Shown here: piece after piece, positions 931 through 19,703 of the stretch
How positions within the stretch are numbered: position 1 is the stretch's first letter
How the letters are laid out: each line of letters opens with the position of its first letter
From: a virus
Lineage: Duplodnaviria > Heunggongvirae > Uroviricota > Caudoviricetes
Length of the DNA: 20,368 nucleotides
Direction: 5' to 3' (one strand)
Virus record (IMG/VR): IMGVR_UViG_2563366803_000006
Made by a program: the position numbers and the translations under genes
The notes under the pieces: model-generated
Told to the model about the DNA's origin: nothing
The model's database searches: none
What the model saw: only the letters and a program-made list of their open reading frames with translations

Positions 931-1020
931 TGTGTTTGTTGTTAACTCTGTCTCTTTAATTTTTGGGTGATGCTGCCAACTTACTGATTTAGTGTATGAT
1001 GGTGTTTTTGAGGTGCTCCA

Positions 1021-1296
1021 GTGGCTTCTGTTTCTATCAGCTGTCCCTCCTGTTCAGCTACTGACGGGGTGGTGCGTAACGGCAAAAGCACCGCCGGACA
1101 TCAGCGCTATCTCTGCTCTCACTGCCGTAAAACATGGCAACTGCAGTTCACTTACACCGCTTCTCAACCCGGTACGCACCAGAAAATCATTGATATGGCC
1201 ATGAATGGCGTTGGATGCCGGGCAACTGCCCGCATTATGGGCGTTGGCCTCAACACGATTTTACGTCACTTAAAAAACTCAGGCCGCAGTCGGTAA
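1021..1296 (+). CDS. insA: IS1 InsA (transposition inhibitor / DNA-binding N-terminal part of transposase)
   Basis: 91-aa [25 protein letters not shown]... with zinc-finger-like CxxC..CxxC and HTH region, GTG start, typical of IS1 InsA. Confidence 0.95.
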
Positions 1297-1718
1297 CCTC
1301 GCGCATACAGCCGGGCAGTGACGTCATCGTCTGCGCGGAAATGGACGAACAGTGGGGCTATGTCGGGGCTAAATCGCGCCAGCGCTGGCTGTTTTACGCG
1401 TATGACAGGCTCCGGAAGACGGTTGTTGCGCACGTATTCGGTGAACGCACTATGGCGACGCTGGGGCGTCTTATGAGCCTGCTGTCACCCTTTGACGTGG
1501 TGATATGGATGACGGATGGCTGGCCGCTGTATGAATCCCGCCTGAAGGGAAAGCTGCACGTAATCAGCAAGCGATATACGCAGCGAATTGAGCGGCATAA
1601 CCTGAATCTGAGGCAGCACCTGGCACGGCTGGGACGGAAGTCGCTGTCGTTTTCAAAATCGGTGGAGCTGCATGACAAAGTCATCGGGCATTATCTGAAC
1701 ATAAAACACTATCAATAA
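1215..1718 (+). CDS. insB: IS1 InsB frame (expressed as InsAB' transposase by -1 frameshift)
   Basis: 167-codon ORF in the -1 frame relative to insA, overlapping the insA 3' end; A6C slippery motif at 1272-1278. Confidence 0.9.
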
Positions 1719-1780
1719 GTTGGAGTCATTACCGCAAAGCTGTATCGCGAGGCGAATCAAGCGCAATTAAACTTTAATAG

Positions 1781-1810
1781 AACCCGCCATCAAGCGGGTT
1801 TTGTTGTTAT
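1781..1810 (+). terminator. Candidate intrinsic terminator just right of IS1 copy 1
   Basis: Hairpin AACCCGC-CATCAA-GCGGGTT (1781-1800) followed by a T-rich tract TTGTTGTTATT. Confidence 0.4.
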
Positions 1811-1841
1811 TGTGGTGTGATATAAGAAACGACATTTAATA

Positions 1842-1975
1842 TTGCCTTCAAAATAAATTTGTTTATATATTGTCGCGTATATTATAAGTGAAGGTGAAAT
1901 GTTCACATAAAATAAAAATACATAAATAAATTTACATAGCTTGACGCAAAGTGTTGTTGCGATTGGAATATTAAA
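1842..1975 (+). promoter_or_regulatory. AT-rich promoter-like region upstream of the tRNA genes
   Basis: Candidate -35/-10 pairs: TTGCCT (1842-1847) with TATATA 16 nt downstream; TTGACG (1941-1946) with TGGAAT/TATTAA downstream. No single promoter can be fixed by eye. Confidence 0.3.
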
Positions 1976-2047
1976 TCGTATCATCGAAAACGGTTCTGAG
2001 GGGGAACTCTTCTTTGCTCGGTGATATCGCTCCCCTGAAGAACCAAT

Positions 2048-2123
2048 GCCGACTTAGCTCAGTAGGTAGAGCAACTGACTTGTAATCAGTAGGTCACCAG
2101 TTCGATTCCGGTAGTCGGCACCA
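2048..2123 (+). tRNA. tRNA-Thr, anticodon UGU
   Basis: 76-nt cloverleaf: acceptor GCCGACT/AGTCGGC, D-arm GCTC/GAGC with GG in loop, anticodon stem ACTGA/TCAGT with loop CTTGTAA, T-loop TTCGATT, encoded CCA end. One A-C mismatch in the T-stem. Confidence 0.9.
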
Positions 2124-2126
2124 TAT

Positions 2127-16890: not shown

Positions 16891-17279
16891 AGTTTACTGA
16901 AATCAGAAATACGGTTATTTCCAGAATGACGGCACAGACGATTATTGATGGAAAAGACGTATTGTATCCGAACGGGCCAACGTTCGATCCTTCCGGTAAG
17001 TTAATCTGGGCGCGGTTAAGTAATATTCCCGGGCAGGCTGGAGTTAATGAAATTGGCGCGGGGCCGGTTGTTTATCGCACGGGGATAATCATTATTCAGT
17101 TATTTGTCCCCGCAGGTTCTGGTTCAAAACTCATTACTGAGACAGCCGATAAATTGCGGGAACTGTTTGAGTTTCAGGATGACGATCGTCTCAGTTACCA
17201 GGCTGTTTCCTCAATAGCCGTCGGCGAAAAGAATGGCTGGTTCCAGCTTAATCTTCAAATTCCATATCGCGCGCTCTAG
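16887..17279 (+). CDS. Tail completion / tail terminator protein (putative)
   Basis: 130 aa; ATGA start-stop overlap with the previous gene; immediately upstream of the major tail protein gene. Confidence 0.45.
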   Translation: MKFTEIRNTVISRMTAQTIIDGKDVLYPNGPTFDPSGKLIWARLSNIPGQAGVNEIGAGPVVYRTGIIIIQLFVPAGSGSKLITETADKLRELFEFQDDDRLSYQAVSSIAVGEKNGWFQLNLQIPYRAL

Positions 17280-17305
17280 CGCAATTAATGACATAGGAGG
17301 CTCCT

Positions 17306-18268
17306 GTGAGTTCAGGTGCAAAGGTTATCTCGGCATTTATCCGGGAGACGGTTGCAGGCACTACGCCAGCAAGTGGTGACTGGAGTTTATTAAAACGCAC
17401 AAGCTGGGGAGTAAAACCCACCCAGAATAAAGGCGAAAATAATGAGATTGGTGGCTCCCGGATGGCTCAGGGGGCGACGCCTGGCACTGTGGATGTCGGC
17501 GGTGATGTTGGTACCAAATTTCGCTGGGGTCAACATGATGATTTTCTTGCATCCTGTTTCGGCGCGGAATGGTCAGGCGATTCTCTGACAATGGGGAATG
17601 AGCGAATAACATTTTCTCTGGCGACCTATGCGTCCGATGTCGGAATTGCCTCTGTCGTCAGAGGAGCGCAGGTTGGCTCATGGAAAATGCAGATCCCTAA
17701 CGACGGCGATATTACAGCGACCGTAACCTTTGCCGGACTGGACTGGGAATCAAAGGCCGATGATACGAATTTTATCAAAGGCGAACCTGTGGATAGTGCA
17801 GGAAAGCTACGTTATTCGTTTAAGGAGGTTTCAGCAGTAAGCCTGAATGGTGTTGCCGGAGGTAACGGTTTTTGTATCGACAGTTTTGATATTCAGTTCG
17901 ATAACAAACTCCAGACACAGCGTTGTATCGGGACTGGCTCGCCTTATGCAGGAGCAAATATTCCGACTACTTTTACACCGTCCGGTACGGTGACGCTTTC
18001 ATGGTCTAAAGCCGCGTGGGAAATCTGGAGTAAAACACTGACTGGAGAAACAGTTCCGTTCAGCTTCACGCTTTCGAATGGAGAGGGGGCATACACTTTC
18101 AGTTTCCCGAAGGTTCAGGTGTCAGGTGAATGGCCTGATGGGGGTAATAGCGACATTATCCAGGTTCAATTGAGCATTACCGCAGCAGATGAAGCACCTA
18201 CGATAACCAGAAAAAAAAATTCCCCGGCTGCCGTGATCGCAAAAGCCAGTGCTGAGGCGATTAGTTGA
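17306..18268 (+). CDS. Major tail (tube) protein (putative)
   Basis: 320 aa from GTG 17306 with strong SD AGGAGG upstream; lies immediately before the tail assembly chaperone with frameshift site, as expected for a siphovirus-type tail tube gene. Confidence 0.55.
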   Translation: MSSGAKVISAFIRETVAGTTPASGDWSLLKRTSWGVKPTQNKGENNEIGGSRMAQGATPGTVDVGGDVGTKFRWGQHDDFLASCFGAEWSGDSLTMGNERITFSLATYASDVGIASVVRGAQVGSWKMQIPNDGDITATVTFAGLDWESKADDTNFIKGEPVDSAGKLRYSFKEVSAVSLNGVAGGNGFCIDSFDIQFDNKLQTQRCIGTGSPYAGANIPTTFTPSGTVTLSWSKAAWEIWSKTLTGETVPFSFTLSNGEGAYTFSFPKVQVSGEWPDGGNSDIIQVQLSITAADEAPTITRKKNSPAAVIAKASAEAIS

Positions 18269-18316
18269 TTTTCCGTTATTCCTCCTGTGGTACTGCCCTA
18301 CAGGGGGACGCATTGA

Positions 18317-18778
18317 ATGAGGTTATGGATGTTTATTCTTAATCAGAAAATTATCATTGGTGGAGAACGCTGGTTTACGCCAATGAAGGACTTAAAACCT
18401 GTAGACGGGTTAAAACTGTTGGTGGCAAGCAGCGATAACGATCAGTATCGCTCCCGTAATGCATTAATCCGTCGCCACATTGAGAAAATGGATGCCAGTT
18501 TGCACGTCGGAACGAAGGAGTTTGATATTTCAAAGGTTTCCGAGGTGGATTCTGTTGATGATTTACTCATTGATAATGCCGCTCGTTATCTGCTGAAAGA
18601 CTGGAAAGGGGTTGGTGAACTGGTTAATGGTGTTGAGGTTGCACTGGAATATACGGCAGAACGAGGGATCGCGCTGCTCAAGCAGAATCCAGAGTTGTAC
18701 TGGCAGATCCTTGCAGAAGCAGCCAGCATCGCCCAGGGTAAAGAGCAGCAGAAGCAGGATACGATAAAAAAGCCATAG
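18317..18778 (+). CDS. Tail assembly chaperone (gpG-like)
   Basis: 153-codon ORF ending ...TIKKP with slippery heptamer A_AAA_AAG (18766-18772) 4 nt before the stop. In-frame alternative starts at 18329 and 18383. Confidence 0.6.
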   Translation: MRLWMFILNQKIIIGGERWFTPMKDLKPVDGLKLLVASSDNDQYRSRNALIRRHIEKMDASLHVGTKEFDISKVSEVDSVDDLLIDNAARYLLKDWKGVGELVNGVEVALEYTAERGIALLKQNPELYWQILAEAASIAQGKEQQKQDTIKKP

Positions 18779-18935
18779 CTGCCCAGCGGTGGTTATCGGA
18801 GTTCGGGGGAGAAAGGGGGGAAAAGGCAAGATGGAAGCGAGAAAAACTCAGGTTGCCACCGATACCGGAACCAGAAATAGACCCGGTGCTTAAGGAGTTG
18901 TTGTACGCCTATTCGGTAATATCCCGTGCCCGACG
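18766..18935 (+). pseudogene. -1 programmed frameshift extension of the tail assembly chaperone (gpGT-like), truncated by IS1 copy 2
   Basis: From the slippery site the -1 frame is open for about 55 codons (KKAIAAQRWLSEFGGERGEKARWKREKLRLPPIPEPEIDPVLKELLYAYSVISRARR) right up to the IS1 boundary at 18935. Confidence 0.55.
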
Positions 18936-18990
18936 GGTGATGCTGCCAACTTACTGATTTAGTGTATGATGGTGTTTTTGAGGTGCTCCA

Positions 18991-19266
18991 GTGGCTTCTG
19001 TTTCTATCAGCTGTCCCTCCTGTTCAGCTACTGACGGGGTGGTGCGTAACGGCAAAAGCACCGCCGGACATCAGCGCTATCTCTGCTCTCACTGCCGTAA
19101 AACATGGCAACTGCAGTTCACTTACACCGCTTCTCAACCCGGTACGCACCAGAAAATCATAGATATGGCCATGAATGGCGTTGGATGCCGGGCAACAGCC
19201 CGCATTATGGGCGTTGGCCTCAACACGATTTTACGTCACTTAAAAAACTCAGGCCGCAGTCGGTAA
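18991..19266 (+). CDS. insA: IS1 InsA
   Basis: 91-aa product identical to copy 1 InsA; both nucleotide differences are synonymous in this frame. Confidence 0.95.
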
Positions 19267-19688
19267 CCTCGCGCATACAGCCGGGCAGTGACGTCATCGT
19301 CTGCGCGGAAATGGACGAACAGTGGGGCTATGTCGGGGCTAAATCGCGCCAGCGCTGGCTGTTTTACGCGTATGACAGGCTCCGGAAGACGGTTGTTGCG
19401 CACGTATTCGGTGAACGCACTATGGCGACGCTGGGGCGTCTTATGAGCCTGCTGTCACCCTTTGACGTGGTGATATGGATGACGGATGGCTGGCCGCTGT
19501 ATGAATCCCGCCTGAAGGGAAAGCTGCACGTAATCAGCAAGCGATATACGCAGCGAATTGAGCGGCATAACCTGAATCTGAGGCAGCACCTGGCACGGCT
19601 GGGACGGAAGTCGCTGTCGTTTTCAAAATCGGTGGAGCTGCATGACAAAGTCATCGGGCATTATCTGAACATAAAACACTATCAATAA
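19185..19688 (+). CDS. insB: IS1 InsB frame (InsAB' by -1 frameshift)
   Basis: Corresponds to copy 1 coordinates 1215-1718; A6C motif at 19242-19248. In this copy the B frame stays open further upstream (to 19104) because TGA is replaced by AGA. Confidence 0.9.
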
Positions 19689-19703
19689 GTTGGAGTCATT
19701 ACC

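Follow-up and report, generated by a model that had tools for sequence, protein, structure and literature searches.

Insertion sequence (IS)-driven decay of Escherichia coli lambdoid prophages is the subject of a broad literature. The Rac prophage of E. coli K-12 keeps its early region (xisR, recET, kilR, racR and ydaSTUV), lacks head genes and carries IS5 in lomR, and Tn9 is a composite transposon with direct IS1 repeats. A 9-bp target-site duplication is the sign of a simple insertion event, not of the IS1 element itself. Rac and Rac-like prophages have ttcA as their integration locus, and XisR is the Rac excisionase (PMC4632033). A review (PMC9330008, citing Turlan & Chandler 1995) places IS1/Tn9 among the elements reported to undergo intramolecular replicative transposition leading to adjacent deletions and inversions, with such deletions beginning exactly at the element end. 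Here, we analyze a 20,368-nucleotide stretch of Caudoviricetes DNA (IMG/VR record IMGVR_UViG_2563366803_000006; hereafter the window, meaning the whole stretch), in which two direct IS1 copies bracket phage late genes. The window is very probably a disabled Rac-type prophage lying next to ttcA in an E. coli strain, shortened by two separate IS1-associated deletions.

Two IS1 copies stand at deletion joints

A repeat search of the window returned one long direct repeat at an offset of 17,970, and base-by-base comparison at that offset showed identity of 965–1733 with the offset copy save for mismatches at 1191 and 1227. Together with direct reading of the ends (GGTGATGCTGCC... and ...GGAGTCATTACC), this gave two IS1 copies of 768 bp in the same orientation; the G common to 965 and 18935 is a chance flank match outside IS1. 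The copies differ at 1191/19161 (T/A) and 1227/19197 (T/A), corresponding to IS1 positions 226 and 262, and both differences are synonymous changes at third-codon positions of insA. Chance is no issue for two near-identical copies of this length. Both copies have the size and imperfect inverted repeats of the IS1 family, the terminal repeats of ~23 bp (left, IRL, GGTGATGCTGCCAACTTACTGAT; right, IRR, as reverse complement, GGTAATGACTCCAACTTATTGAT) being alike at 18 of 23 positions. Pfam analysis found insA (Zn_ribbon_InsA and HTH_Tnp_IS1) and insB′ (DDE_Tnp_IS1) intact in both copies; the A6C frameshift site is also present in each (TTAAAAAAC at 1270–1278 and 19240–19248), and matching sequences are labelled IS1A/IS1B family transposase in RefSeq.

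The 9-bp flanks read taatttttg/gcaaagctg at copy 1 and tgcccgacg/ctgttgatt at copy 2. When the four flanks were compared in every pairing, none matched, and a 9-bp target-site duplication is absent at both copies. Copies located at deletion joints would be expected to lack it. An original prediction made from the sequence letters had described the two same-orientation copies with two differences, the unmatched flanks and a 17,202-bp block between the copies (1734–18935), all of which held on re-examination.

The whole window was compared by megablast with 5,426 complete E. coli genomes. It was present as a whole in none of these 5,426 genomes, and the inner block was found as a single piece in many E. 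coli chromosomes, where the genes are annotated trkG, intR and ydaY. Since the window reaches no further than the int stop codon, ttcA is visible only in matching assemblies. In one of these, a 4.77-Mb scaffold (L005, GCA_000408585.1) identical to window 1–10930, int is followed by ttcA and then dbpA. The locus thus has the features used to define a Rac-type prophage, namely intR beside ttcA together with the marker genes trkG, a ParB-like gene and ydaY.

To map what is missing, the window was aligned to intact Rac-type prophages at ttcA in E. coli 1428 (L001 and L002) and FDAARGOS_1058 (L003). The E. coli 1428 prophage is apparently complete, with intR, xisR, rcbA, ralR, recT, recE, racC, kilR, sieB, a repressor and a cro-like gene, ydaT/U/V, several accessory genes, DUF1367, DUF1364, DUF1133, two tRNAs and the late genes; its Q-like gene, DUF1133, also gives a faint Phage_antitermQ match. 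The 17.2-kb inner block aligned as one collinear match, 99.8% identical to L001 and 99.3% identical to L003. At the first joint, window 1734 corresponds to position 16002 of L001 and L003, DUF1133 ending at 15963, and copy 1 stands in place of 15,764 bp of L001 (~15.8 kb) containing the first 271 nt of intR, xisR, recET, kilR, the immunity and replication genes and the Q-like antiterminator gene. At the second joint, window 18935 corresponds to L003 33216 and window 19704 to L003 45971, and copy 2 replaces 12,754 bp containing the remainder of the chaperone extension, the tape measure gene, genes for tail proteins M, L, K, I and J, lom and the fibre gene (3,276 nt) up to nt 2,611. L003 also holds the matching tail fibre allele.

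The IS1 ends are therefore flush with both joints, and the sequences on either side of each copy keep the same order and orientation in the relatives, 15,764 and 12,754 bp apart. The alignment to intact relatives supports the predicted view that neither copy is a simple insertion, since both stand at deletion joints whose flanks are collinear but 15.8 and 12.8 kb apart in relatives. The genes predicted to be missing were likewise identified: excisionase, recombination, immunity, replication and Q-type genes at copy 1, by comparison with E. coli 1428, and tape measure and tail tip genes at copy 2, where, by comparison with L003 and frame analysis, IS1 lies between the chaperone frameshift extension and the fibre 3′ end. 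The predicted joining of an integrase 5′ region to the tRNA and lysis region was correct as to the joint and incorrect as to the integrase, because the gene itself is cut and it is the 3′ 965 nt that remain. None of the relatives examined was a natural mosaic with these flanks side by side; no intact relative had int beside the tRNAs, or the chaperone beside the fibre 3′ end, without IS1. IS1-associated deletion explains why int adjoins tRNAs and lysis genes.

Window 1–965 runs from nt 1236 of intR back to nt 272 and shares 99.2% identity with intR as annotated in E. coli 1428 (L002 1827..863). The lost 271 nt encode the arm-binding domain, which is present as Arm-DNA-bind_2 in full-length intR (L032, Pfam). 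The remnant lacks codons 1–90, and a 309-amino-acid open reading frame (ORF) exists only because an in-frame ATG lies at 930. In another lineage (L007 426–1661 and L008), a full-length intR with a stop codon at W33 yields the same 309-amino-acid gene call with no IS1. On the other side of copy 1, the joint lies 38 nt past the DUF1133 stop. At copy 2, an A AAA AAG slippery site lies at 18766–18772, at the end of ydaY, and frame analysis of an intact relative showed that the −1 frame is open across it; the first ~54 codons of the −1 extension are kept before IS1, which cuts the extension about halfway. A conserved tail chaperone frameshift is known from lambda G/GT, which the ydaY site fits.

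IS1 copies in other Rac prophages provided an internal control for reading those of the window, through the pattern of duplication and contiguity across the sample. Three IS1 copies have a 9-bp duplication (GAGGCATTA in L014, GGATAGTTG in L033 and GCTCAAAAA in L027); their flanks are contiguous, and they were read as simple insertions. Copies without a duplication were found in L004, L014 (two copies), L015, L016, L032 and L034, and in every case the flanks are distant from each other or absent in an intact relative. The comparison serves as a worked example: in this prophage family, a copy that lacks a target duplication can reliably be taken to sit at a deletion joint.

Window junctions in other assemblies

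The truncated 309-amino-acid integrase was looked up by exact sequence to find assemblies that share the window junctions. The int/IS1 junction is present in five assemblies (L005, L006, L009, L010 and L013). An independent 1.06-Mb contig (L006, GCA_964051545.1) contains the int–IS1–late region contiguously, as well as the ydaY–IS1 junction, and the three assemblies besides L005 and L006 end inside IS1 just past the shared int joint. Three of the four junctions therefore recur in independent assemblies; the IS1/fibre junction was not found in this search.

In L006, over its positions 1–10930, window 7391–18935 is inverted (break at 7390/7391) beside an extra inverted IS1 in the ParB-like gene. 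A lookup of the TAGT-like protein did not bring up the contig with the far end of this inversion among the matches listed. Either transposase activity or recombination can produce such an inversion.

Origin of the deletions

The joints would be accounted for by intramolecular replicative transposition. Each deletion would have started with the insertion of one IS1 into the prophage, after which IS1 transposase would have linked the ends of the element to another position in the same DNA molecule, with the intervening DNA lost as a circle. What remained would be a single intact IS1 directly abutting the new joint, without a target duplication. The first deletion (~15.8 kb) extends from inside intR to just past the Q-like antiterminator gene, and the second (12,754 bp) from inside the chaperone frameshift extension to 665 nt before the tail fibre end, the two together having cut a ~48-kb prophage to a ~20-kb remnant. 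Because no intermediate was found, the choice of mechanism rests on parsimony and precedent. On these grounds, we infer with modest confidence that transposase, and not IS1–IS1 recombination, made the deletions: the adjacent-deletion route takes two insertions and two deletions, or four events, and recombination takes four insertions and two crossovers, or six.

The rival route is RecA-dependent homologous recombination, in which each deletion arose between two separately inserted, same-orientation IS1 copies with loss of the interval and one IS1. We consider this possible but rather unlikely. Its product would be identical, with one intact IS1, no duplication and flanks from two sites, so the originally predicted pattern of IS1-mediated adjacent deletion stands as far as the deletion joints are concerned, and its mechanistic part shares its end product with direct IS1–IS1 recombination. 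Substrates are not rare, as Rac prophages with two or three IS1 copies exist (L014 has three). Both L006 copies carry T226/A262, which makes them hybrids between the window variants T,T and A,A and shows that, in this lineage, sequence passes between IS1 copies by recombination or conversion. None of the 5,426 complete genomes held a single-IS1 ancestor with a duplication at any of the four sites, and no independent assembly contained the IS1/fibre junction (19703/19704). All of these points weigh against the transposase-made deletions proposed above or against the reconstruction on which they depend. Recombination is also named as a common deletion route in the review (PMC9330008). Against recombination stand the two additional events and the fact that none of the four simple insertions it requires was present in the 5,426 complete genomes.

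That one or more junctions are assembly errors across IS1 repeats is very improbable. The likely source of the window, L005, is a scaffold-level assembly, and the search for the IS1/fibre junction was negative in several forms: its exact 36-mer was absent from metagenome and species-representative contigs, lookup of the candidate truncated-fibre products (190 and 123 amino acids) returned only frameshifted or contig-end genes, and none of the four junctions was present in the 5,426 complete E. coli genomes. An assembly artifact is opposed by the recurrence of three junctions in the independent L006 contig and of the int/IS1 junction in five assemblies, by the two-base difference, which indicates that the copies were not collapsed into one consensus, and by the prophage order and orientation kept throughout. 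Finally, a Tn9-like composite transposon, in which the 18.7-kb IS1–block–IS1 unit moved in from elsewhere, is suggested by the direct IS1 pair around a gene block, as in Tn9, and was rejected as hardly credible, since the outer flanks taatttttg and ctgttgatt form no duplication, the flanks and block make up one prophage in native order and orientation, the chromosomal block always lies inside Rac-type prophages and no plasmid holds at least 80% of it, only a 2.6-kb trkG piece being plasmid-borne.

The two direct copies are substrates for further rearrangement, and on their account the region is unstable and difficult to assemble. A crossover between them would excise 17,970 bp, resulting in an int′–IS1–′fibre allele, which was not seen in the 5,426 complete genomes.

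IS1 joints in other Rac prophages

Positions of IS1 in other strains were compared with those in the window, and joints lying close to them proved frequent. Near the int/xis boundary, represented by window 930–965, an IS1 joint lies 14 nt deeper into intR and in the opposite orientation in L004, L011 and L012 (L004 9980–9983), and L033 has a simple IS1 insertion in xisR (2913–3680). IS1 deletions connect xisR to a tolA-like gene in L034 (2926–3693), recE to Rz in L032 (6050–6817) and kilR to a tolA-like gene in L014. Overall, the early region and int/xis boundary carry at least five different IS1-associated deletions and the one simple insertion in other strains.

Joints after ydaY were collected with a query that included the IS1 left end, and only one IS1 orientation was therefore detectable. 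On the L003 scale, they lie at 33195 in L015 (leading to tail gene M), 33216 in the window, 33218 in L014 (with an IS1 94.5% identical, leading to the ydfK region) and 33525 in L016 (leading to sitB). In their own coordinates, the sites are window 18914–18945, L014 20103, L015 6080 and L016 6412. Four IS1 left joints thus fall within 331 bp, three of them within 24 bp, each with its own deletion partner. The L014, L015 and L016 joints do not coincide to the base, indicating independent events. The target after ydaY, GTTATGCTGG, resembles the IS1 left end, GTGATGCTGC. An apparent 10-base microhomology at the left joint of copy 2, where BLAST matches ran on to 18945, was rejected as a junction mechanism because the intact sequence has only partial similarity there (GTTATGCTGG versus GGTGATGCTG).

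The stretch after ydaY, and perhaps the int/xis boundary too, might be a true IS1 insertion hot spot, for which likeness to the IS1 end could be the cause; we regard this as doubtful. Were it so, Rac prophages would lose their tail module and early region to IS1 repeatedly, possibly under selection and not by random decay. Only one aspect of the locus is mildly unusual: in unrelated strains, IS1 joints recur at almost identical positions.

Gene content of the remnant

ORFs were annotated with Pfam and tRNAs with ARAGORN and Rfam, and names were taken from the annotation of relatives (Table 1).

Table 1. Coordinates of the features of the window
Feature	Position	Strand	Description
intR remnant	1..965	−	Rac tyrosine integrase gene (1,236 nt), 3′-terminal 965 nt; Pfam Phage_integrase
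IS1 copy 1	966..1733	+	IRL 966–988, IRR 1711–1733; insA 1021–1296, insB′ 1215–1718, A6C motif 1272–1278
Intergenic DNA	1734..2047	+	Downstream of the Q-like gene in intact relatives; joint 38 nt past DUF1133 stop
tRNA-Thr(TGT)	2048–2123	+	ARAGORN, Rfam
tRNA-Gly(TCC)	2127–2201	+	ARAGORN, Rfam
Lysis cassette	2885..4880	+	Holin (essD-like), DUF1327/YdfR, lysozyme, Rz; Pfam, L001 annotation
trkG	5000..6475	+	Rac-borne potassium transporter gene; Pfam TrkH E = 3.8e-144; named trkG in all relatives
ParB-like gene to tail tube	6613..18268	+	Pfam; collinear with L001 and L003
ydaY tail chaperone and cut −1 extension	18317..18935	+	ydaY stop 18776–18778; annotated in L001 and L003
IS1 copy 2	18936..19703	+	insA 18991–19266, insB′ 19185–19688, A6C motif 19242–19248
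Tail fibre remnant	19704..20368	+	Last 665 nt of the 3,276-nt gene; S74 intramolecular chaperone end; Pfam Peptidase_S74

From the ParB-like gene onward, the genes are ordered ParB-like, TAGT-like, small and large terminase, portal (DUF4055), Mu-F-like minor head protein, scaffold-like DUF6651, P22-type coat, head–tail genes, tail terminator and tail tube. This region is 99.4–99.5% identical to deposited phage records, in which near-identical late regions are present. The fibre remnant is 99.85% identical to L003 45971–46635 and 100% identical to sequences in many E. coli genomes. To the right of copy 1, a promoter and terminator scan gave consensus-level matches only, including a terminator-like hairpin at 1775–1806 identified by consensus match alone. 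An Rfam scan of the window returned the two tRNAs and nothing further.

Several additional observations were made on these genes. A 13-nt unit, gctcggtgatatc, is single at window ~2016–2028 and is present in two tandem copies in L001 and L003, just upstream of tRNA-Thr. A 2.6-kb piece comprising the end of Rz, trkG and the start of the ParB-like gene (window 4414–7033) also occurs, at 99% identity, on E. coli, Enterobacter, Citrobacter and Klebsiella plasmids; in L022, the one case examined, it is part of a prophage remnant carried by the plasmid. The interval from trkG to the terminase genes (window 6613–8329) has a gene with a ParB N-terminal domain that overlaps a TET-associated glycosyltransferase-like (TAGT-like) gene, and the two may together form a DNA modification module. 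In the collection, 3,927 blocks list the glycosyltransferase-like protein.

Judged from its gene content, the prophage should be dead, having lost excision, replication, late activation and tails. Lack of XisR and of the arm-binding portion of Int should prevent its excision; with the replication and Q-like genes gone, neither replication nor late-gene activation is expected; and it should not build tails because it is without tape measure, tail tip and complete fibre. Expression of trkG and the tRNAs may persist. Decay of a cryptic prophage through insertion sequences is ordinary and already well known, and the significance of the locus is small beyond annotation.

Comparison with known systems

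The window resembles Rac of E. coli K-12 in its ttcA site and in having 99% identical intR, Rz, trkG, ParB-like ynaK and ydaY. In content, the two are the reverse of each other: unlike K-12 Rac, the window retains lysis, head and proximal tail genes, and it is without the early region and distal tail genes, with its breaks at IS1. Tn9 is similar in having a same-orientation IS1 pair around a segment that can be deleted by recombination between the copies, whereas the window unit has no surrounding duplication, occupies its native prophage position and has no copy elsewhere.

The window also resembles the IS1 adjacent deletions of Turlan & Chandler (1995), as cited in PMC9330008, in that both share a start at the IS1 terminus, an intact IS1, the absence of a duplication and a variable far endpoint; unlike those reported there, the window deletions are read from the end product alone. 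The IS629 adjacent deletions in O157 mentioned in the same review (PMC9330008) are also comparable, in that insertion sequences shorten and inactivate prophages, and they differ from the deletions proposed here in IS family and prophage, not in mechanism.

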